The translations under genes and the position numbers were made by a program. Source: Shigella phage ESh16. Taken from it: a DNA stretch of 64,000 nucleotides. This document shows positions 5,507 to 38,729 of the stretch, piece after piece (position 1 is the stretch's first letter; every line of letters starts with the position of its first letter). Location of the stretch: the sequence record ON528726; one strand, 5' to 3'. Under the pieces are notes generated by a model that had not been told where the DNA came from, made no database searches, and saw nothing but the letters and a program-made list of their open reading frames with translations.

Positions 5507-5561
5507 CCGCTTTATACCAAGGATGGTATAATGGTTCTAAGCCCTTTTAATTGAGATTATT

Positions 5562-5969
5562 ATGAAACGGTTGATAATTAAAAGATTGAATTTATTGATA
5601 TGTTGTTTATGTGTAGTAGTTGCATATGGTTATTACGCAATTAATGATTATATGCATTATAAAGATTATGATGTTACTGTAGTTAATACCATTACAGGAA
5701 CACAAGGAAAAGGGTCTAGTTTATCGTTTATTGCCGTATATGAACTAAAAGACGGTTATAGATTTAGTGAATATATTTCCCCAGAGATGTATTCTTCAAT
5801 AGAAAAAGGTGATAATATTACTGTAAGTTTACGTCCTTTCGACGTAAAACAGACATTGTTTGATAATATTGTTTGGTTCTTTGGAATGGTATTAGTTCAA
5901 TCTGTGTGTGGTGCTTATATAGTCTGTTCCATCTTATTCTGTATATTTAGTAAAATTGAAATTGAGTGA
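5562..5969 (+). CDS. predicted membrane protein (135 aa)
   Basis: N-terminal (LLICCLCVVVAYGYYAI) and C-terminal (VWFFGMVLVQSVCGAYIVCSILFCIF) hydrophobic segments. Confidence 0.4.
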   Translation: MKRLIIKRLNLLICCLCVVVAYGYYAINDYMHYKDYDVTVVNTITGTQGKGSSLSFIAVYELKDGYRFSEYISPEMYSSIEKGDNITVSLRPFDVKQTLFDNIVWFFGMVLVQSVCGAYIVCSILFCIFSKIEIE

Positions 5970-5976
5970 GGAAAAT

Positions 5977-6867
5977 ATGTCAGTAGTAATTAATAATGTC
6001 AATGCAGTAATTAAATCTTTAGTTAATAAAAAAATGATGAATGAATGGACTGTATTTCGCCGTGCAGAGCCAGATAAATTTTTTCATAGATTTAACTCAA
6101 CTTTGGATTTGAATGTTATCGGCAGAGATGTTCATGCCGAAATTTTAGATAAGTTTAAAGTTGATATTGGATTTGGATTAGAAAAACATTTGCAGCGAAC
6201 AAATGGGTCTGGAATGAGTTTATCTAATCGCATTATGAAAGCTCTTAATAAAATTGGAGCATTGTCTCGTATTAACGCGAGTGAAATCCTTCGTAATTAT
6301 AATAAAGGATATGACCTTTATGGTCGACTAATGCCGAAATTATCATTCGATCAAATGATTGCGGATTTGTGGGAAAATCAACGACGATTATTAGCATTAG
6401 GCGCTCGATTAGCTAAAGGTCTAGATAAACAAATGATTTTTAAGACCAATAATACGGAAGACCTTAAATGCTTTAAATTTAGTACTCGTGGTATTGATTA
6501 TTATATCAGAGCTCACTCTACAGATTATGTCAATATGGGTCATCATCTCTGTTTAGCTTTTGAAGTTTTAAAAGAAGCTGGAACATTAGAATATTCATCT
6601 GGTGCAAAATGCCCTATTGGTTCAAGTTGTATTTTAATTTATCGCCCGGATGAATCCAGTTCAACTACATTGCCTACGAAACCTGTACCAGTTCGTAGTA
6701 ATGAAAAACATTCTGAACAAATTGATTATTTTAATAAGCAAATTGAAGAGCTGAATATTTCTATTCAACAATATGATGATGAAATTTTCAGACTATCTGG
6801 ACTGAGTAGTAAAGCTAAATCTGAGCGTGAAAAGTTAATTAAAATTGTCGATTTACTTAAATCTTAA
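5977..6867 (+). CDS. hypothetical protein with C-terminal coiled coil, possible family member P1 (296 aa)
   Basis: ATG 5977 after SD GAGGAAAA; C-terminal helical region similar in style to the next three ORFs. Confidence 0.45.
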   Translation: MSVVINNVNAVIKSLVNKKMMNEWTVFRRAEPDKFFHRFNSTLDLNVIGRDVHAEILDKFKVDIGFGLEKHLQRTNGSGMSLSNRIMKALNKIGALSRINASEILRNYNKGYDLYGRLMPKLSFDQMIADLWENQRRLLALGARLAKGLDKQMIFKTNNTEDLKCFKFSTRGIDYYIRAHSTDYVNMGHHLCLAFEVLKEAGTLEYSSGAKCPIGSSCILIYRPDESSSTTLPTKPVPVRSNEKHSEQIDYFNKQIEELNISIQQYDDEIFRLSGLSSKAKSEREKLIKIVDLLKS

Positions 6868-6875
6868 GGAATACC

Positions 6876-7898
6876 ATGAAAACTCGTTCTCAAATTGAAG
6901 ATATGGTTCGTACTGCCAGCGATACTCGTAATGTTATGACATTTTTGTGCGAAAATAATTTAGACCCTGATAAAGTTAATCGTGCTATTCATCACTTTAA
7001 ATATCTAAATAGCAGTGAATGGGTGAGTAATTTTAGTAAAGCGGGGTATATTACACAAATGACGGCTCGTGAGCAGCTTACCGATTTCTGTAAAACTATT
7101 GATTATAAAAATCCTCTATTTGTTCAAGGCGTTGGTCAAAGTAAGGTCGATTTATCATCTGGATTTTTCAATCCAAATCATTATCGTATTGAATGGAGAT
7201 TTATTGCTCTGTTCCGTAGACAATTAAAGCAAATTTTGTCGACTGCTAGTCGATTAAAAGGTTCTGACATTAACTTAAAGAACCTGAAATTTGATGGTTA
7301 TACTCTTCAGATGGAAGTAAGACCATTAAAAGAAAATAACAGAACTGCGCGAATTAGCTTTAAACCTAATACAAAAAATTCTCTTTCAATTTGCGAATGC
7401 CTTAAATCGCAGTTGACAGAAGCATTTAAGTATATGGATGTTGTTGCCACTGTTCAGTCTAAGATTTCACAGCATTTCGAACGATTTAAATTAGACACAA
7501 CAACATATGAACTTGATATGTTCGTTTCATTTAAATACGATTTTTTGAGAAAGGACGAAGTCCCGCAAGAGAAAAAGCAGGAAGTGCAAGATATCTTAAA
7601 TTTATCCAATTACTCATCAAACGATCCTAAATTTTGGATGTATAGCTCAAGCAATATAGATGCATGTAAACTTAATAAAGTGAGTTTTCTTCCTACTGAA
7701 AATTCAAATTTTAAACCTGTAGAAAAATGGCACGCTGACGCGATTGAGAAGTCTCTTAAGGCAGTAGATGATGAACTCGTTAAAGCGACCAATGAAGTGC
7801 TAGAAACTGAAAAGGTGTTAGAACAAGCTCAGTCAAGGGTTCAAAATCTGACAAAGCAACGTTCTAAACTGAACAATGCACTAAATGCACTAAACTAG
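6876..7898 (+). CDS. paralogue-family protein P2 (340 aa)
   Basis: N-terminus MKTRSQIED; block WRFIALFRRQLKQILSTASRLKGSD matches P3; C-terminal coiled coil. Confidence 0.55.
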   Translation: MKTRSQIEDMVRTASDTRNVMTFLCENNLDPDKVNRAIHHFKYLNSSEWVSNFSKAGYITQMTAREQLTDFCKTIDYKNPLFVQGVGQSKVDLSSGFFNPNHYRIEWRFIALFRRQLKQILSTASRLKGSDINLKNLKFDGYTLQMEVRPLKENNRTARISFKPNTKNSLSICECLKSQLTEAFKYMDVVATVQSKISQHFERFKLDTTTYELDMFVSFKYDFLRKDEVPQEKKQEVQDILNLSNYSSNDPKFWMYSSSNIDACKLNKVSFLPTENSNFKPVEKWHADAIEKSLKAVDDELVKATNEVLETEKVLEQAQSRVQNLTKQRSKLNNALNALN

Positions 7899-7927
7899 TT
7901 TACTTTGCCACAAGGATGTGGTATAAT
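7898..7927 (+). promoter_or_regulatory. early promoter (GTTTAC, TATAAT)
   Basis: GTTTACTTTGCCACAAGGATGTGGTATAAT; near-identical copy at 52118-52147. Confidence 0.6.
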
Positions 7928-7955
7928 GTTCTTACTTTCTACTGAGGAGATTAAT

Positions 7956-8957
7956 ATGACTCGTAACGAATATATCAAATCATTCAATAGCGTTATTGAT
8001 GATAAAGTTAAACCTGTGTCTAGTCAGAATAGCGTTATTTCCATTATCAATCAATGGCTCAATAATACTGATGCAAGTATTGTTTCTTCCAGCAAATTTA
8101 TTCATGAAGTTCATAAAATTTCTAGTCGCGAATATAAAGATGATATTAAGGAAACCTTTAAAGGGTCTCGTCTTCTTTCATATTTAGTTAACCAAGATAT
8201 TCTTGGTAAATTTGGGAAAGAAATTAAACGAACTAAAGATGTAGTAGGATATAATTGGTTCGGTGATGTTAATTCATATCATCTTAATATTAAAGAAGAT
8301 CCTGATAATATTTTTACTCGTCGTTGGATTAGTAATTTCAGACTTTTCAAAAAGCAAATTCTAAAATCAGCTTCTAAATTATGCTATGGCGATTATCGTC
8401 AAATTCATCCTTGGGCTTCTGATATGATTATCATAAAAGAATATGAACTTGATAAAAATAAAGCAGCTATTTTTGTGAATTATGAATTTTTTACACCAGA
8501 AGCTAATCAAAAGAACATCAATAAATTTTTCTCAATTGCTAGCGATATAACTCGTCAATTAGAGACTGCACTACTTTGTATGGAAACAGTAGAAAATATT
8601 CATACATATCCTTTCAAAAATATGTGTGGTTGGGAAGGATATAAAATTATAATTAGCCTTCGTGAAGTGAAATGTGCGTACTCACCGACTGATAAAGAAA
8701 TTTACCAACAAAAATGTGATGAAATTGCGAATACTCCTAAAGAAGAAACTACCCTTGAGGAACTAATGGAATGTCTTGATGATTCACCTGAACCGGTAGA
8801 AATTCGTCCAGAAGTTATTGCATTAGAAAAAGCTTATAAAGAAGCTCTAGAAATTTCTAATAAAGCGCAGAAAGAATATGAGCAGGCTAAAAGGATTTGG
8901 GAAGAATCTGTTAATCGCCTGGATCGTCTTGAACAAGCTTTACAGTTAATTAAGTAA
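7956..8957 (+). CDS. paralogue-family protein P3 (333 aa)
   Basis: ATG 7956 after early promoter at 7898-7927; block RRWISNFRLFKKQILKSASKLCYGD; C-terminal coiled coil. Confidence 0.55.
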   Translation: MTRNEYIKSFNSVIDDKVKPVSSQNSVISIINQWLNNTDASIVSSSKFIHEVHKISSREYKDDIKETFKGSRLLSYLVNQDILGKFGKEIKRTKDVVGYNWFGDVNSYHLNIKEDPDNIFTRRWISNFRLFKKQILKSASKLCYGDYRQIHPWASDMIIIKEYELDKNKAAIFVNYEFFTPEANQKNINKFFSIASDITRQLETALLCMETVENIHTYPFKNMCGWEGYKIIISLREVKCAYSPTDKEIYQQKCDEIANTPKEETTLEELMECLDDSPEPVEIRPEVIALEKAYKEALEISNKAQKEYEQAKRIWEESVNRLDRLEQALQLIK

Positions 8958-9009
8958 TTTAAAGCCAAGGATGGCTCGGAGTATAAATCATTAACCAAGT
9001 GAGAAGAAC

Positions 9010-9936
9010 ATGAAAACTCGTAAACATTATATTGATTATTTTGACAGCCTTATTACTAAACACCGTAATTATCAGATCGGACACAGAGCAGTAATCAATA
9101 ATATTCTTCGTGATTTTTTAGACTATATTGGATGGGAAAACCATATTTGTAAAGATACACAAAATGCATATTCACATTCTCTTGGTTCTTTGCTAGAGTG
9201 GTTCAAACGTTCCCGATTACTATCTTCTGTAGTAGCTGTTAATAATGTTAAAAAATTTATGTATCCAAGCTACATTGAGACTAATGTATCAAATGCTAAT
9301 GTTGTTACATTTAATATTATTAATGACGTGAAAAGAACTTATTTAGAAGAATGGTTTTCTAAAAATAGTAAAGAAAAATTCGCTAGTGAGTTTTCAGGTG
9401 AATTTAATGAGAACGTTAATATGCTTTTTAAGCATTCTCGTAGACTGTTTTGTCATGGTGATAATCGTACTATTAATGTGAATGTAAAAGACTGGGTTAC
9501 TGCTAAATTCACTCCATCATCCCAGAATGGACAATTTGAATTATCAATTATCATTTGTGCTCCGCACGAGATATATAAAAATCTTCCGTATATGAAACCG
9601 CACGAAGCTAATAAACACAATGAAACTATTAGTTCTTTGGCTTATAATTTGCGTGAGTTATTATCTAATATGGATGTAGTTAAATCCTTTGATGATAATA
9701 CGAATTATGGTCTTTCACTGTTTGAAACTAAATTTGTTATTAAGTTAAAGGACCCCAGCGAATTTAAACCTACACCAAAGCACAATCATGGGAATGATAC
9801 TATGAAAGAAGAACGTGAATATCTCAGTGCTCGTTTGATTGAAGTTGAAAAACAGATTGAAGAGCATACTAAAGTTCTTAAGGCTTTAACCGCCAAAGCA
9901 GATGGTTTACGTGATGCTATTGAGGTGCTGAAATGA
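9010..9936 (+). CDS. paralogue-family protein P4 (308 aa)
   Basis: N-terminus MKTRKHYIDYF; SRLLSSVVAVNN and RRLFCHGDNR resemble P3; C-terminal coiled coil. Confidence 0.55.
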   Translation: MKTRKHYIDYFDSLITKHRNYQIGHRAVINNILRDFLDYIGWENHICKDTQNAYSHSLGSLLEWFKRSRLLSSVVAVNNVKKFMYPSYIETNVSNANVVTFNIINDVKRTYLEEWFSKNSKEKFASEFSGEFNENVNMLFKHSRRLFCHGDNRTINVNVKDWVTAKFTPSSQNGQFELSIIICAPHEIYKNLPYMKPHEANKHNETISSLAYNLRELLSNMDVVKSFDDNTNYGLSLFETKFVIKLKDPSEFKPTPKHNHGNDTMKEEREYLSARLIEVEKQIEEHTKVLKALTAKADGLRDAIEVLK

Positions 9937-18101: not shown

Positions 18102-18303
18102 CCTCTCCGGATTCTTGGAAGAAATACCTGAAGTTGAAGCTATTCCCTATTTACTTAAAATGTATCTCAGGGAAGTTTTAGCTCTTGACATTGATATTGA
18201 TCCAGAAAATCCGTATGATACCGCTTTTAAATCTAATGGTGTAGAATTAAACTATCGGTATCATTTAACAGATGATGATTTTTATTTTATATTAGAGAAA
18301 TAA
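18085..18303 (+). CDS. hypothetical protein (72 aa)
   Basis: ATG ORF overlapping end of gene 55. Confidence 0.35.
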
Positions 18304-18304
18304 T

Positions 18305-18622
18305 ATGACTGATAAACCCGAAATTAATGATGAAGTGGAAAAGCTTATTTCTTCTATTGAAGAAAAGAACCGTCTTGAAGCAGAAAGAAAAGCAAATAAG
18401 TTATTGTCTAAAAACAAACGCGAACTGAACCGTCTTTATAAGCACGCTCAGATTGCAGCTGAAAACAATAATTTCGCTCAATACGAATATGCTATCAAGA
18501 AAAGTCGGGATATTCTAAAACAGCCATATAACGATGAACTCATTAGTATTCTTTGGAAGACTACTAGATCGCAGATTGAGGATATGATTGATGCTTACAC
18601 ACGTAAAATTCAAGCGTCTTAA
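18305..18622 (+). CDS. hypothetical helical protein (105 aa)
   Basis: ORF; charged helical sequence. Confidence 0.4.
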   Translation: MTDKPEINDEVEKLISSIEEKNRLEAERKANKLLSKNKRELNRLYKHAQIAAENNNFAQYEYAIKKSRDILKQPYNDELISILWKTTRSQIEDMIDAYTRKIQAS

Positions 18623-18794
18623 AATTAATGCAGGATTTACTGAATCTTTGAATGGTCATCTTTGCGTGAAAATTTCTGAAAAAGAATACCATGATAGTTC
18701 AATTAAAGAAGTTAATCCTCCTATTGTAAGAGCAGACCCTAATATGAAAGTGTGGGTTGATTCCTATCAAGTCAAAAAATGGTGGCAACTGTGA
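18588..18794 (+). CDS. hypothetical protein (68 aa)
   Basis: ORF overlapping previous gene. Confidence 0.3.
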   Translation: MMLTHVKFKRLKINAGFTESLNGHLCVKISEKEYHDSSIKEVNPPIVRADPNMKVWVDSYQVKKWWQL

Positions 18795-18797
18795 AAG

Positions 18798-18971
18798 ATG
18801 AACACCCAGACTTCTGAAATAGATTATAATAAAATTCGTTCCTCTAAAGTAGAAATGATGAGACGCTTTAAAGAGTCTCATGATAAAGCTAAAGCAGAAG
18901 GAACTATAACACATAAACGTATAAAATTTAGAAGCTCTAATGAGCCTCTGTATGGTGTATTATGCGGATAG
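18798..18971 (+). CDS. small hypothetical protein (57 aa)
   Basis: ATG 18798; stop inside terminator hairpin; below track threshold. Confidence 0.3.
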   Translation: MNTQTSEIDYNKIRSSKVEMMRRFKESHDKAKAEGTITHKRIKFRSSNEPLYGVLCG

Positions 18972-18990
18972 GAGCTTCGGCTCCTATATT
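18970..18990 (+). terminator. UUCG-loop hairpin (AGGAGC-TTCG-GCTCCT)
   Basis: Inverted repeat with TTCG loop, T-rich tail. Confidence 0.5.
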
Positions 18991-19037
18991 GCTTTATAAA
19001 TTTTTGGTAAAATAAACCAAAACAATGAGGATATTAA

Positions 19038-20240
19038 ATGAAAGTATGCATTTTTATGGCTCGAGGTCTTGAAGGTTGCGGCGTAACTAAATTTTCTCTC
19101 GAGCAGCGTGATTGGTTTATTAAAAATGGTCATGAAGTAACTTTGGTTTATGCTAAAGATAAATCATTTACTCGTAATTGCGCGCATGATTATAAATCAT
19201 TTTCAATTCCGGTTTTATTGGCAAAAGAATACGATAAAACACTTAAGCTGGTAAATGATTGTGATATTCTAATTATCAATTCAGTTCCTGCTACTTCAGT
19301 CGAAGAAGACACTATTAATAACTATAAAAAAATTATTGATAACATTAAACCTTCGGTTCGTGTTGTAGTTTATCAACATGACCATTCTTCTCTTTCTTTG
19401 CGCCGAAATTTGGGATTAGAAGAAACTGTTCGTCGAGCTGATGTTATTTTTAGCCATTCTGATAATGGCGATTTTAATAAAGTTTTGATGAAAGAATGGT
19501 ATCCAGAAACAGTTTCTCTGTTTGATGATATTGAAGAAGCACCGACTGTATACAACTTTCAGCCTCCTATGGATATTGCGAAGGTTCGATCAACATACTG
19601 GAAAGATGTTTCTGAAATTAATATGAATGTCAACCGTTGGATTGGTCGTACGACTACATGGAAAGGTTTTTATCAGATGTTTGATTTTCACGAAAAACAT
19701 CTTAAACCTGCAGGACTAAGTACTATTATGGAAGGTCTGGAACGTTCTCCAGCGTTCATTCCTATTAAAGAAAAAGGAATTCCATATGAGTATTATCGTC
19801 TTCATCAAGTAGACCAAATTAAAATTGCTCCTAATTTGCCAACGCAAATTCTTGACCGTTATGTAAATAGCGAAATGCTTGAACGTATGAGTAAATCCGG
19901 ATTTGGTTATCAGTTGAGTAAGTTGGATAAAAAATATCTACAACGTTCTTTAGAATATACTCATCTCGAGCTTGGTGCGTGCGGAACAATTCCAGTATTT
20001 TGGAAATCTACTGGCGAAAATTTAAAATTCCGTGTTGATAATACTCCGTTAATTTCTCATGATAGCGGTATCGTTTGGTTTGATGAAAATGACATGGAAT
20101 CAACATTTGAGCGTATTAAAGAACTGTCATCTGACCGAACTCTTTATGACCGTGAACGCGAAAAAGCTTATGAATTTTTGTATCAGCATCAAGATTCAAG
20201 CTTCTGCTTTAAAGAACAGTTTGACATTATTACAAAATAA
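19038..20240 (+). CDS. a-gt: DNA alpha-glucosyltransferase (400 aa)
   Basis: CIFMARGLEGCGVTKFSLEQRDWFIKNGHEVTLVYAKDK as recalled for T4 alpha-gt; length 400 aa. Confidence 0.92.
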   Translation: MKVCIFMARGLEGCGVTKFSLEQRDWFIKNGHEVTLVYAKDKSFTRNCAHDYKSFSIPVLLAKEYDKTLKLVNDCDILIINSVPATSVEEDTINNYKKIIDNIKPSVRVVVYQHDHSSLSLRRNLGLEETVRRADVIFSHSDNGDFNKVLMKEWYPETVSLFDDIEEAPTVYNFQPPMDIAKVRSTYWKDVSEINMNVNRWIGRTTTWKGFYQMFDFHEKHLKPAGLSTIMEGLERSPAFIPIKEKGIPYEYYRLHQVDQIKIAPNLPTQILDRYVNSEMLERMSKSGFGYQLSKLDKKYLQRSLEYTHLELGACGTIPVFWKSTGENLKFRVDNTPLISHDSGIVWFDENDMESTFERIKELSSDRTLYDREREKAYEFLYQHQDSSFCFKEQFDIITK

Positions 20241-20279: not shown

Positions 20280-20420
20280 ATGACATTTCTTGGATATGTG
20301 ATACTTTTTCTCGCATTTTATCTATTCACTAGAGCATGTTGGATTGGGTTCTTTAGCACTCCAGATGGATTTATTTCAATAATTTTATTTTGCATTTCAA
20401 TGACGGTTCTTGATATATGA
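20280..20420 (+). CDS. small membrane protein (46 aa)
   Basis: Hydrophobic ORF; stop overlaps seg-like ATG (ATATGA); AT-rich. Confidence 0.25.
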   Translation: MTFLGYVILFLAFYLFTRACWIGFFSTPDGFISIILFCISMTVLDI

Positions 20421-20908
20421 AAAAATATATAACTTATTTAACAATATATAGTGGAGATAAACTTCCTCCTTTTTATATTGGATCTACGTCTTTAGATAGG
20501 CATTTAGCTGGATATCATGGTTCAGTTTTATCTAAAAAGTATAAGAAAATTTATAATAAAGAGCTTTCAGATAATCCTCACTTATTTGATTCATGCATTT
20601 TAGCTGAATTTGATACGCGTGAAGAAGCTATTAAATGCGAGTTATATTATCAACGATTGCATGATGCAGTTAAAAATCCATTATTCTTTAATATGTCATA
20701 TGCTGCTCCAAAAGGTTCATTTGGAAGAGATAATAAAGGACAAAATCATCCATTATATGGTTCTCATAATTGTAAAGGAAATATACATTCACATGATCCA
20801 TTAACAGGAAAATCTGCCTTTTTACCTTATATTCCAGAAGGTTATGTAAAAGGAAGGTCAAATAAATTTAAAGCTTCATCACATAATAAAGGTAAAAAAA
20901 TGGTATAA
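20417..20908 (+). CDS. GIY-YIG homing-endonuclease-like (seg-like) protein, apparently truncated by frameshift (163 aa)
   Basis: N-terminal KYITYLTIYSGDKLPPFYIGSTS resembles the GIY...YIG motif; AT-rich codons; A7 run at 20894-20900 and the +1 frame stays open to 21041. Confidence 0.5.
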   Translation: MKKYITYLTIYSGDKLPPFYIGSTSLDRHLAGYHGSVLSKKYKKIYNKELSDNPHLFDSCILAEFDTREEAIKCELYYQRLHDAVKNPLFFNMSYAAPKGSFGRDNKGQNHPLYGSHNCKGNIHSHDPLTGKSAFLPYIPEGYVKGRSNKFKASSHNKGKKMV

Positions 20909-21041
20909 TAACGGAGTTAAGCAAATGTTATGTCATGAACCTCCTGGTCCTGAATGGGCAAAAGGAAAAATTAAAGAACTGGTTTCAAAAGCAGCTAAAT
21001 TAGGATGGAAAAGACATCATGAAAATACTAAACTTGGGTGA
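20417..21041 (+). mobile_element. seg-like homing endonuclease gene cassette between alpha-gt and gene 47
   Basis: GIY-YIG-like ORF plus downstream +1-frame extension; T4 as I recall has no seg gene at this position. Confidence 0.4.
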
Positions 21042-22038
21042 TTGGCATTTAGGCGTTAAAGCTGATGATGAGTGGATTCGCGGTATTCAAATTGATGGAA
21101 TTAAGCAAGCGATAGAATATTCTAAGAAAAATGGAATTACGGTATGGATTCAATATGGTGATATTTTTGATGTGCGAAAAGCGATCACGCATAAAACAAT
21201 GGAGTTTGCCCGTGAAATAGTTCAAATGCTTGATGACGCTGGAATCACATTACATACTATTGTAGGAAATCACGATCTCCACTACAAAAATGTAATGCAT
21301 CCAAATGCTTCTACTGAGCTTTTGGCTAAATATCCTAATGTTAAAGTATATGATAAGCCTACTACAGTAGATTTTGACGGATGTTTGATTGATTTAATTC
21401 CTTGGATGTGTGAAGAAAATACTGGTGAAATTCTTGAACATATCAAAACTTCATCTGCTTCTTTTTGTGTTGGTCACTGGGAACTGAATGGATTTTATTT
21501 TTATAAAGGAATGAAATCTCACGGTCTTGAACCTGATTTCCTTAAGACTTATAAAGAGGTGTGGTCTGGTCACTTCCATACTATCTCTGAGGCTGCTAAT
21601 GTCAGATATATTGGGACACCATGGACACTAACTGCAGGTGACGAGAATGACCCTCGCGGGTTCTGGATGTTTGATACAGAAACAGAACGAATGGAATTTA
21701 TTCCAAACAACACTACCTGGCATCGTCGAATTCAATATCCATTTAAGGGAAAAATTGACTATAAAGATTTTACAAATCTATCAGTACGTGTTATAGTAAC
21801 TGAAGTAGACAAAAATCTAACGAAGTTCGAATCTGAACTAGAAAAAGTTGTGCATTCATTACGAGTTGTGTCAAAGATTGATAACTCTGTCGAGTCAGAT
21901 GATAGTGAAGAAGTTGAAGTTCAATCTCTTCAGACATTGATGGAAGAATACATTAATGCAATTCCAGACATCACTGATTCTGATCGCGAAGCACTTATTC
22001 AATATGCAAATCAGTTATATGTAGAGGCAACACAATGA
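21019..22038 (+). CDS. 47: recombination nuclease subunit gp47, Mre11/SbcD-like (339 aa)
   Basis: N-terminal LNLGDWHLG and GNHD phosphoesterase motifs; length as recalled for T4 gp47. Confidence 0.92.
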   Translation: MKILNLGDWHLGVKADDEWIRGIQIDGIKQAIEYSKKNGITVWIQYGDIFDVRKAITHKTMEFAREIVQMLDDAGITLHTIVGNHDLHYKNVMHPNASTELLAKYPNVKVYDKPTTVDFDGCLIDLIPWMCEENTGEILEHIKTSSASFCVGHWELNGFYFYKGMKSHGLEPDFLKTYKEVWSGHFHTISEAANVRYIGTPWTLTAGDENDPRGFWMFDTETERMEFIPNNTTWHRRIQYPFKGKIDYKDFTNLSVRVIVTEVDKNLTKFESELEKVVHSLRVVSKIDNSVESDDSEEVEVQSLQTLMEEYINAIPDITDSDREALIQYANQLYVEATQ

Positions 22039-37503: not shown

Positions 37504-38532
37504 ATGTCATCAATACCTTGGATTGATAATGAGTTTGCATACCGTGCATTAGCTCATTTACCTAAATTCGCACAAGTAAATAATAGTTCAACTTTTAAAT
37601 TACGGTTTAGATGTCCTGTTTGTGGAGATTCAAAAACCGATCAAAATAAAGCCCGTGGATGGTATTATGGCGATAATAATGAAGGAAATATTCATTGTTA
37701 TAACTGTAACTATCATGCACCAATCGGAATATATTTAAAGGAGTTTGAACCTGATTTATATCGTGAGTATATCTTTGAAATAAGAAAAGAAAAAGGTAAA
37801 AGTCGTCCAGTAGAAAAACCTAAAGAACTTTCTAAACAACCTGAGAAGAAAATAATTAAATCTCTTCCGTCATGCATTAGACTAGATAAACTGGCGGAAG
37901 ACCATCCAATTATAAAATATGTAAAAGCTCGTTGTATTCCAAAGGATAAATGGAAATATCTTTGGTTTACAACCGAATGGCCTAAATTAGTTAATAGTAT
38001 AGCGCCAGGAACATATAAAAAGGAAATGCCCGAGCCTCGTCTTGTTATTCCAATTTATAATGCTAACGGAAAAGCCGAGTCTTTTCAAGGACGTGCATTA
38101 AAGAAAGATGCTCCTCAAAAATATATCACCATCAAAGCTTATCCTGAGGCAACAAAAATCTATGGAGTTGAACGAGTCAAAGATGGTGATGTATATGTTC
38201 TAGAAGGACCTATAGATTCACTTTTTATTGAAAATGGTATAGCTATTACGGGTGGTCAATTAGACCTAGAAATTGTTCCATTTAAAGATAGACGTGTGTG
38301 GGTTTTAGATAATGAACCTCGTCACCCTGACACTATTAAACGAATGACTAAATTAGTTGATGCAGGAGAAAGGGTTATGTTTTGGGATAAATCTCCCTGG
38401 AAATCAAAAGATGTTAATGATATGATTAGAAAGGAAGGTGCAACCCCTGAACAAATTATGGAATATATGAAAAATAATATTGCCCAAGGGTTGATGGCTA
38501 AAATGCGGCTATCTAAATATGCTAAGATTTAA
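37504..38532 (+). CDS. 61: DNA primase gp61 (342 aa)
   Basis: Zinc ribbon CPVCGDS...CYNCNYH and TOPRIM-type acidic motifs; length as recalled for T4 gp61. Confidence 0.93.
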   Translation: MSSIPWIDNEFAYRALAHLPKFAQVNNSSTFKLRFRCPVCGDSKTDQNKARGWYYGDNNEGNIHCYNCNYHAPIGIYLKEFEPDLYREYIFEIRKEKGKSRPVEKPKELSKQPEKKIIKSLPSCIRLDKLAEDHPIIKYVKARCIPKDKWKYLWFTTEWPKLVNSIAPGTYKKEMPEPRLVIPIYNANGKAESFQGRALKKDAPQKYITIKAYPEATKIYGVERVKDGDVYVLEGPIDSLFIENGIAITGGQLDLEIVPFKDRRVWVLDNEPRHPDTIKRMTKLVDAGERVMFWDKSPWKSKDVNDMIRKEGATPEQIMEYMKNNIAQGLMAKMRLSKYAKI

Positions 38533-38729
38533 ATTAACCCAACCAAAGCAAATGCTAAATCTACGAATGTATCAAGAGTAATTACTGGAATATTAACACC
38601 ATGAGCAATAGCAATTGGTGATAAAACAAAATTCCAGAGTAAAATTCCTACCATAGCAGAAATAGTAAAAGCTATACGTTTTTTATTACCTTTTATGGCA
38701 TTAACAAGTGCCATTAATTTTTGTACCAT
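38529..38729 (-). CDS. small hydrophobic membrane protein on opposite strand (66 aa)
   Basis: ATG (complement 38727-38729) 5 nt after a perfect AAGGAGG SD (complement of 38734-38740); two hydrophobic helices; stop overlaps gene 61 stop. Confidence 0.4.
   Translation of the reverse strand: MVQKLMALVNAIKGNKKRIAFTISAMVGILLWNFVLSPIAIAHGVNIPVITLDTFVDLAFALVGLI

Follow-up and report, generated by a model that had tools for sequence, protein, structure and literature searches.

A frameshifted Seg-like homing endonuclease gene between genes 47.1 and 47 of Shigella phage ESh16

Upstream of gene 47 in Shigella phage ESh16 (ON528726), the reading frame of a putative homing endonuclease stops directly behind a run of seven A residues, and the +1 frame stays open into the start of gene 47. 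This arrangement raises the question of whether the gene is decaying by mutation, is expressed through controlled frameshifting, or has been split by a homopolymer error during sequencing, three alternatives that a first-pass annotation of the locus had offered side by side. Here, we analyze the locus within a window of 64,000 nucleotides, i.e., the whole stretch of DNA under study, and compare it with related phages. Decay by a real mutation is the best supported of the three alternatives, while a sequencing error is unlikely and frameshift control is unsupported. We propose, with a probability of about 0.72, that this is a decaying homing endonuclease gene of the Seg type, inactivated by the gain of one A in a run of six.

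Reading frames at the 47.1/47 junction

The features of the locus are listed in Table 1. Positions 20882-20908 read CAT AAT AAA GGT AAA AAA ATG GTA TAA in the frame of the truncated ORF. The +1 frame, read from 20901, starts with TGG TAT AAT AAC GGA and ends with a TGA stop at 21039-21041, and it is free of stops already from 20850. The stop behind the A7 run and the open +1 frame described in the first-pass annotation are thus seen in the sequence, as is the overlap with the gene 47 ATG, which amounts to 23 nt. Its count of 163 codons for the truncated ORF was also right; the +1 frame, on the other hand, comprises 46 codons rather than 45, and the removal of one A in silico gives a protein of 207 aa, not of about 206. 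A stretch of 46 open codons would arise by chance with a probability of ~0.015 at the base composition of the cassette, but it is homology, and not the probability of an open frame, that decides whether the downstream part is truly coding. The 38-aa ORF within this downstream frame is a by-product of the frameshift. In Shigella phage ESh36, this short ORF has been called as a gene.

Table 1. Coordinates of the features at the 47.1/47 junction, numbered from the first nucleotide of the window.
Feature	Position	Strand	Remarks and source
Alpha-glucosyltransferase gene (a-gt), upstream flank	19038-20240		ORF list and annotation in relatives
Gene 47.1, 46-aa predicted membrane protein	20280-20420	+	ORF list; phrog_6693, E 2e-31
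Inserted cassette	20417-21018	+	602 nt; alignment to the T4 47.1/47 junction
Left ATGAAAA copy (7-nt direct repeat)	20417-20423	+	Start of the endonuclease ORF
Truncated endonuclease ORF	20417-20908	+	163 codons; ends ...NKGKKMV*; ORF list
A7 homopolymer	20894-20900	+	Extra A relative to the apparently ancestral A6 (Lys-Lys, AAA AAA)
Out-of-frame 3' part of the endonuclease gene	20901-21041	+	46 codons and stop
38-aa ORF with ATG start, downstream frame	20925-21041	+	Preceded by GGAG (20912-20915)
Right ATGAAAA copy	21019-21025	+	Start of gene 47
Gene 47, SbcD/Mre11-like recombination nuclease subunit	21019-22038	+	ORF list; annotation in relatives

The gene had been assigned to positions 20280-21041. 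While the end of this span holds, its start belongs to gene 47.1, and the endonuclease ORF begins only at 20417. This conserved gene is 99% identical to T4 47.1, and its TGA overlaps the ATG of the endonuclease ORF (ATGA), but 47.1 is not part of the endonuclease gene. The AT-richness attributed to the ORF has the right direction but is mild, the GC content of the cassette being 29.8% vs 34.5% in the window.

Identity and fold of the encoded protein

The ORF obtained by fusing the two frames matches the protein family phrog_10820 over aa 1-192 (E 2e-94), i.e., across the frameshift point, and also matches phrog_314, 'homing endonuclease'. We found 170 homologues among 5.8 billion proteins, and these have in common an N-terminal domain of ~115 aa, to which variable C-terminal regions are fused. 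For 47 homologues chosen for alignment, the conservation of residues and the matches to Pfam were determined: NUMOD3 was detected in 23 of them and GIY-YIG in 15 (E<0.01). The protein itself scores 21.4 bits (E 3e-4) against the Pfam GIY-YIG model (PF01541), below the gathering cutoff of 22.6. We regard this as the near miss of a divergent subfamily, and the fold and profile evidence outweighs the sub-threshold score. There is no NCBIfam model for the protein.

The first motif of the GIY/YIG pair is degenerate ('ITYLTIY') and lies ~10 residues from the second. Among the 47 homologues, Y33, G35, S39, L56, F57, A71, E75 and N92 are invariant, and Y7, Y11 and Y20-I21-G22 are nearly so. In hhalign, SegE and SegA have their Glu and Asn opposite E75 and N92, and these two residues fall almost at the positions of the catalytic E75 and N90 of I-TevI. 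The situation is different for the arginine: R28 is present here near the position of I-TevI R27, but the homologues carry K, N, Q or E there. T4 SegA-E likewise have no obvious R-x3-H, and the family shows a conserved S39-K40 and Y33-x-G35 in place of the Arg motif. The catalytic residues that were to be expected of a GIY-YIG nuclease are thus found as far as Glu and Asn are concerned, the Arg not being conserved in the family.

A structural model computed with AlphaFold from the family alignment reached a mean pLDDT of 86, with values of 94-98 over aa 1-90, and it shows the alpha/beta fold of GIY-YIG domains, i.e., a three-stranded sheet with flanking helices. The top three Foldseek matches of this model are all the catalytic domain of I-TevI (probability 0.94-0.99, with 0.99 for the top two; TM 0.60 on target), and its remaining structural neighbours are also GIY-YIG nucleases. 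Together with the conserved YIG, Glu75 and Asn92, this bears out the GIY-YIG identity that the first-pass annotation had proposed from the N-terminus. In the model, the C-terminal module consists of strands 161-164 and 169-172 and a helix at 186-203 (pLDDT 81-94). The truncated ORF holds the catalytic domain (~aa 1-100) and a linker/NUMOD3-like region, while the lost 3' part is predicted to encode a beta-hairpin (WYNNG...) and a helix of the DNA-binding region.

When the family profile was aligned with all nine T4 GIY-YIG proteins by hhalign, SegE was the best match (97.8%, E 9e-13, 164 columns), followed by SegG (95.8%), SegC (90.4%), SegB (85%) and SegA (82-97%), in line with the Seg-like character suggested before; SegF, SegD, I-TevI and I-TevII gave no significant match of the catalytic domain in this set (0.9% for I-TevI). 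BLASTP also reached SegG (3.6e-5) and SegE (1.9e-4), while a tblastn search of 50,697 phage records failed to recover the T4 Seg genes at E<1e-3; because of this, profile methods were needed to recover the relationship with the Segs. A search of the single protein against the sequences of solved structures returned nothing useful, and the family profile gave there only a NUMOD3-type match to the DNA-binding domain of I-TevI (E 0.098).

The alignment with SegE extends from residue 19 to 189 (SegE 16-197). It passes residue 161, with 'IPEGYVKGR...NKGKKWYNNGVKQMLCHEPPGPEWTKGKIKE' opposite SegE 'VPEGFVKGM...TTGTFWVNNGAINKLIQPDGIIPDGFIKGRLMK', and pairs 'KGKKWYNNG...P.WTKGK' with SegE 'TGTFWVNNG...PDGFIKGR'. 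Since this similarity continues beyond the frameshift, the downstream frame encodes a conserved Seg C-terminal module, and the homology on which the earlier interpretation of this frame depended is found.

Many GenBank records already annotate the gene as a putative homing endonuclease, and the names used in annotated relatives are 'putative homing endonuclease', 'homing endonuclease' and 'HNH endonuclease'. The last of these, which is found as a RefSeq and PHROG name, was rejected: neither the protein nor the 47 homologues give an HNH match in Pfam, and the structural neighbours are GIY-YIG nucleases. The label appears to be a propagated misnomer, and it is widespread in RefSeq for this gene.

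Judging by its sequence and profile relationships, the intact gene thus encodes a free-standing GIY-YIG homing endonuclease of the T4 Seg type, with SegE and SegG as the closest T4 homologues. SegE resembles it in the catalytic domain and in the C-terminal module 'W-x-N-N-G ... P-x-G-[WF]-x-K-G-[KR]', in length (205 aa vs 207 aa here) and in being free-standing, in the orientation of its neighbours, immediately 5' of a conserved gene of DNA metabolism. The two proteins nevertheless share only ~27-28% identity, and SegE has 'GYLGSGKAI' where the protein studied here has 'GYHGSVLSKKY'. They also differ in location: segE is inserted at inh/uvsW and targets uvsW (PMC2988022, Table 1), while the present gene lies at 47.1/47 and presumably has a different target, overlaps the downstream gene by 23 nt and, in this copy, is frameshifted. 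SegG (inserted at 32/59 and targeting gene 32), SegA, SegB and SegC share the similarity of the catalytic domain and the pattern YIG...GY.GS...E...N, but their C-terminal regions cannot be aligned except for short motifs, and their genomic sites are others. Besides, the resemblance of the fold to the I-TevI catalytic domain (PDB 1MK0, 1LN0) is accompanied by clear differences, as the sequence-profile match is insignificant, the gene is not intron-encoded, no zinc finger or H-T-H was detected in the protein, and the equivalent of Arg27 is not conserved.

Insertion site and distribution of the cassette

T4 has no insert at this junction, and 47.1 and gene 47 are joined there by an ATGA in which the stop and start codons overlap. 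Compared with T4, the window is identical up to ...GATAT ATGAAAA, continues with the insert and a second ATGAAAA, and then enters gene 47. The insert measures 602 nt with A7 and 601 nt in the A6 relatives, and the ATGAAAA copies form a 7-nt direct repeat at its borders. The ATG of the cassette inherits the ATGA coupling to 47.1, and the start of gene 47 lies within the overlapping last codons of the endonuclease gene (...H H E N T K L G*).

The cassette is present in 65 of the 506 matching phage records, counting those in which the match covers 80% or more of the query, a coverage that cannot be reached without the cassette. T4 and most relatives are without it. Three other genera harbour intact orthologues at this position, each running past the start of gene 47: the Gelderlandvirus SEA1 (79% identity), Klebsiella phage SmallBear (70%) and the Dhakavirus QL01 (61%). 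T4 has 15 homing endonuclease genes, none of them at 47.1/47 (PMC2988022); the review of T4 mobile elements is silent on a homing endonuclease gene at this junction, and our literature search found no paper describing the lineage. Phage KNP1 was considered as a deleted copy of the cassette and rejected, the gap being a stretch of N's in the scaffold.

A promoter scan returned four promoter-like sites vs 6.6 expected from a shuffled control, with none standing out in the cassette, and the single notable hit of a terminator scan was a hairpin after a-gt. The cassette thus looks promoter-less, and several T4 seg and mob genes are promoter-less cassettes (PMC2988022). A weaker, 5-pair terminator-like hairpin was noted on the minus strand inside the endonuclease ORF.

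Immediately downstream of the insert, codons 3-6 of gene 47 read ATA CTA AAC TTG, vs ATT TTA AAT TTA in T4. Co-conversion, or selection for a site that resists cleavage, leaves patterns of the kind seen in these four synonymous differences, which we take as a hint only. The identical variant codons also occur at a precise empty site in five records from four phages (SHFML-26, BCPEco_001, BCPSen_003 and Ec_YwIITB1), and the idea that they mark an immunity site confined to carriers was rejected for that reason. The empty sites with variant codons may have arisen when the cassette was precisely lost between the two copies of ATGAAAA, or they may have been resistant and never received it.

By analogy with SegE and the other Segs, gene 47, an essential recombination gene whose product is the SbcD/Mre11-like subunit of the gp46/47 nuclease, is the probable target of the intact gene. 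In a mixed infection, the 207-aa enzyme would probably cut the DNA of a cassette-less phage in or near the 5' end of gene 47, and the repair of the double-strand break would then copy in the gene together with its flanking markers.

Origin and consequences of the seventh A

The region studied here is 100% identical to that of Shigella phage ESh34 (ON528744, Tequatrovirus), whose GenBank record carries no annotation. We surveyed the length of the run in the best 60 full-length matches to 20417-21041, counting the run itself in four genomes. The match spans 624 nt, the length expected for A6, in 55 of the 60, and the annotated ones among these carry one 207-aa ORF; in TadeuszReichstein (MZ501106), a regular-expression count gave A6. 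Three matches span 625 nt, all with A7, namely ESh34, ESh36 and vB_Eco_ZCEC15. The match of ERS-1 starts only at base 5 of the query, and its length is uninformative. The remaining match, KMB22, is 623 nt long; its run at this site is A6, and the loss of one A from the A5 run at 20962-20966 makes for an independent frameshift. At the Lys-Lys or Lys-Arg site, the orthologues of SEA1, SmallBear and QL01 use the codons AAA AAG, AAA AGA and AGG AAG, all within uninterrupted frames, and therefore the A run itself is not conserved. Overall, these sequence comparisons point to A6 as the ancestral state and to A7 as a derived state of a minority.

The rarity of A7 could also be read as a sign that the seventh A is an error of sequencing or assembly and that the phage truly has A6 and an intact 207-aa gene. 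Only one base is affected, and it lies in a homopolymer; A7 occurs in only three of the 60 best-matching records, and two of these, ESh34 and ESh36, come from one laboratory, are labelled UNVERIFIED in GenBank and had their reads assembled by Newbler, which was designed for data prone to homopolymer errors. Besides, the exact 163-aa product was found elsewhere in a large protein collection in the ESh36 assembly only, and IMG/VR holds no contig that matches the site at any run length. Nevertheless, errors at homopolymers of seven bases are uncommon on Illumina instruments, and all three A7 genomes come from the Illumina MiSeq, ESh34 and ESh36 with 2x300 reads and a coverage of at least 49.5x (PMC9686686), and ZCEC15 likewise from a MiSeq (PMC12931091). 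ESh30 and ESh31, which were obtained in the same study and with the same pipeline as ESh34 and ESh36, have A6.

The genomic context also argues against an error. ESh34 and ESh36 differ in size (167 vs 171 kb) and by five differences in the adjacent 47.1, but share an identical cassette with A7 and the private substitutions 20824A, 20958G and 21017T, a haplotype absent from the other four genomes aligned, including TadeuszReichstein and KMB22 with their A6 runs. The co-segregation of A7 with this haplotype of three substitutions in two otherwise different genomes is to be expected of inheritance rather than of error. In ZCEC15, A7 lies on the common haplotype, and this second occurrence fits a mutational hot spot. 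The gain of one A in an A6 run is also the most expected spontaneous lesion in a T4-like phage, as is known from Streisinger's slippage model and from the hot spots for frameshifts at A runs in rII.

The notion that the window is generally riddled with homopolymer errors was rejected on two grounds. When the stop-to-stop ORFs of TadeuszReichstein of at least 60 aa were searched against the window, the endonuclease gene was the only gene split across frames, and of the 18 other indels in well-aligned sequence whose length is not divisible by three, none leaves an ORF shorter than in that phage. One other ORF was flagged by the search, at a break between alignment blocks. The window contains three A7 runs, one T7 run and no longer run, and the two remaining A7 runs (6028-6034, and 19326-19332 within a-gt) both sit in intact frames. 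Overall, we consider a real mutation the probable origin of the seventh A, and an artefact unlikely.

A real A7 run might still serve expression, if +1 ribosomal frameshifting or slippage of the RNA polymerase yielded a low level of the full-length enzyme and so throttled a toxic nuclease. A +1 slip on AAA AAA A would allow tRNA-Lys to re-pair without a mismatch, and the second AAA is preceded at a distance of 3 nt by a Shine-Dalgarno-like AAGGU, in what the sequence suggests is a prfB-like arrangement, so that some leaky restoration is physically plausible. However, the split frame is not conserved, with the 624-nt in-frame ORF present in 55 of the 60 best matches and uninterrupted ORFs without an A run in the orthologues of three other genera. 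The 0-frame codon in the A site would be AUG, which is neither a stop nor a rare codon, and folding of 20885-20990 against shuffled sequences revealed no stimulatory RNA structure after the run (MFE z-score -0.10). Efficient transcriptional slippage in E. coli needs runs of ~9 or more, and A7 is shorter. Because the A run is not conserved and no RNA structure follows it, a programmed frameshift is unsupported, and we judge control of this kind to be very improbable.

We give little credence, at a level close to dismissal, to a reversible on/off switch in which the run alternates between A6 and A7 to silence and restore a toxic selfish nuclease. If it were true, A7 alleles would be silent yet carried along, or mobilised in trans by intact copies; a low rate of +1 frameshifting or RNA-polymerase slippage, aided by the AAGGU, would restore a trickle of enzyme; and the presence of A7 on two haplotypes, together with its spread into two different genomes, would reflect recurrent and tolerated switching, not simple decay.

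The truncated 163-aa protein could alternatively be functional and domesticated, e.g., as a non-specific nickase or a regulator. It would fully retain the catalytic domain and the linker, with a confident fold in the structural model, and the A7 allele is found in two distinct genomes. Against this, there is no sign of selection for the truncation, and the isolated catalytic domain of I-TevI is without useful DNA affinity. The lesion is recent, since the downstream frame has stayed fully open and matches the intact alleles at 96-100% identity. The different frameshift of KMB22, in turn, fits random decay. A domesticated function thus seems highly doubtful.

We thus return to decay as the preferred reading. 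The extra A in the Lys-Lys run would shift the frame at codon 161. The resulting 163-aa product would still have its catalytic domain and linker, but the beta-hairpin (161-172) and the helix (186-203) would be gone. Such a product is probably not a site-specific endonuclease, and with the DNA-binding module it would be expected to lose target binding and homing. Variable presence and frameshifts are known marks of homing endonuclease genes that decay in the course of the homing cycle (PMC10448857). T4 I-TevIII, mobA and the frameshifted genes of phage ICP1 are further examples of decay, in which, as here, a variably present selfish gene has been frameshifted with its flanks intact. The present gene differs from them in that one recent +1A in an A6 run makes up the whole lesion and that the intact allele is still present in most of the population.

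In terms of annotation, positions 20417-21041 are best described as a pseudogene (frameshifted GIY-YIG/Seg-like homing endonuclease), with 47.1 kept separate. The type of element is thoroughly known, the case represents the ordinary decay of a homing endonuclease gene with no new mechanism, and its significance is modest, leaving the current understanding unchallenged. Overall, these results describe a Seg-like lineage tied to the 5' end of gene 47 in several genera of the Tevenvirinae, and they show a snapshot of the homing cycle within one phage genus, in which intact alleles occur alongside precise empty sites and alleles with frameshifts at homopolymers, of which at least two arose independently.

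Cassette borders and gene 47.1

The first-pass annotation had started the Seg-like GIY-YIG homing endonuclease gene at 20280, but a range from that position takes in gene 47.1, which is a separate conserved gene. In T4, which lacks the endonuclease cassette, the TGA of 47.1 overlaps the ATG of gene 47. In the window this stop codon overlaps the start codon of the endonuclease gene instead, and thus the translational coupling has been taken over by the cassette.

Both flanks of the cassette carry a 7-nt direct repeat. Directly at the insertion junction, codons 3-6 of gene 47 hold four synonymous differences, reading ATA CTA AAC TTG in the window vs ATT TTA AAT TTA in T4, with intermediate states in RB14 and others. 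These differences may be a footprint, whether of the endonuclease target, immunity or co-conversion. Besides, a precise empty site together with the cassette-type synonymous codons was found in SHFML-26, BCPEco_001, BCPSen_003 and Ec_YwIITB1; such sites could have arisen by precise deletion between the repeats, or could be resistant sites that were never invaded.

Features in and around the cassette and in the variable region (window coordinates)
Feature	Position	Description
ORF of the variable region	5956-6867	300-350 aa
ORF of the variable region	6876-7898	300-350 aa
ORF of the variable region	7905-8957	300-350 aa
Fourth ORF, after the stretch without counterpart	9010-9936	similar size; in sequence aligning at only about 77% with TadeuszReichstein
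Gene 47.1	20280-20420	46 aa, hydrophobic; phrog_6693; 99% identity with T4 47.1
Direct repeat ATGAAAA	20417-20423 and 21019-21025	cassette flanks
GGAG	20912-20915	
38-aa ORF	20912-21041 (region); ATG 20925	ends at the normal endonuclease stop, overlapping gene 47
A5 run	20962-20966	one A missing in KMB22
Gene 47 codons 3-6	21025-21036	

Surroundings of a-gt and the variable region

In T4, the HNH homing endonuclease gene mobB adjoins a-gt, lying between a-gt and a-gt.2 (T4 37885-38679). Upstream of a-gt in the window (about 18300-19037), only short ORFs were observed and none as large as mobB, which therefore appears to be absent. With mobB apparently missing and the cassette present, T4 and the window phage would each have a selfish gene beside a-gt, not the same one and not on the same side.

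Elsewhere, about 3.4 kb (about 5526-8965) has no counterpart in the annotated relative TadeuszReichstein. The ORFs listed above for this part of the window have coiled-coil-like C-termini; their location is nrdC.x, a variable region in T4-like genomes.

Naming and lesions of the endonuclease gene

The endonuclease is labelled 'HNH endonuclease' by RefSeq/PGAP and by PHROG 10820. Its predicted fold is GIY-YIG, and no HNH signature was found in the endonuclease or in 47 homologues; the label looks like a propagated mis-annotation.

In phage vB-Eco-KMB22 (locus L008), the homopolymer hot spot that is A7 in the window is A6, and an A has been lost further downstream in the same gene, giving a different C-terminal frameshift and an annotated ORF of 194 aa. 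It counts as the second homopolymer lesion of the endonuclease gene and is independent of the first.

Behind the premature stop in the window, GGAG lies 9 nt upstream of the in-frame ATG of a 38-aa ORF, which is annotated as a gene in ESh36, a relative sharing A7. If this ORF is translated, we speculate that ribosome traffic into the start of gene 47 could survive the frameshift.
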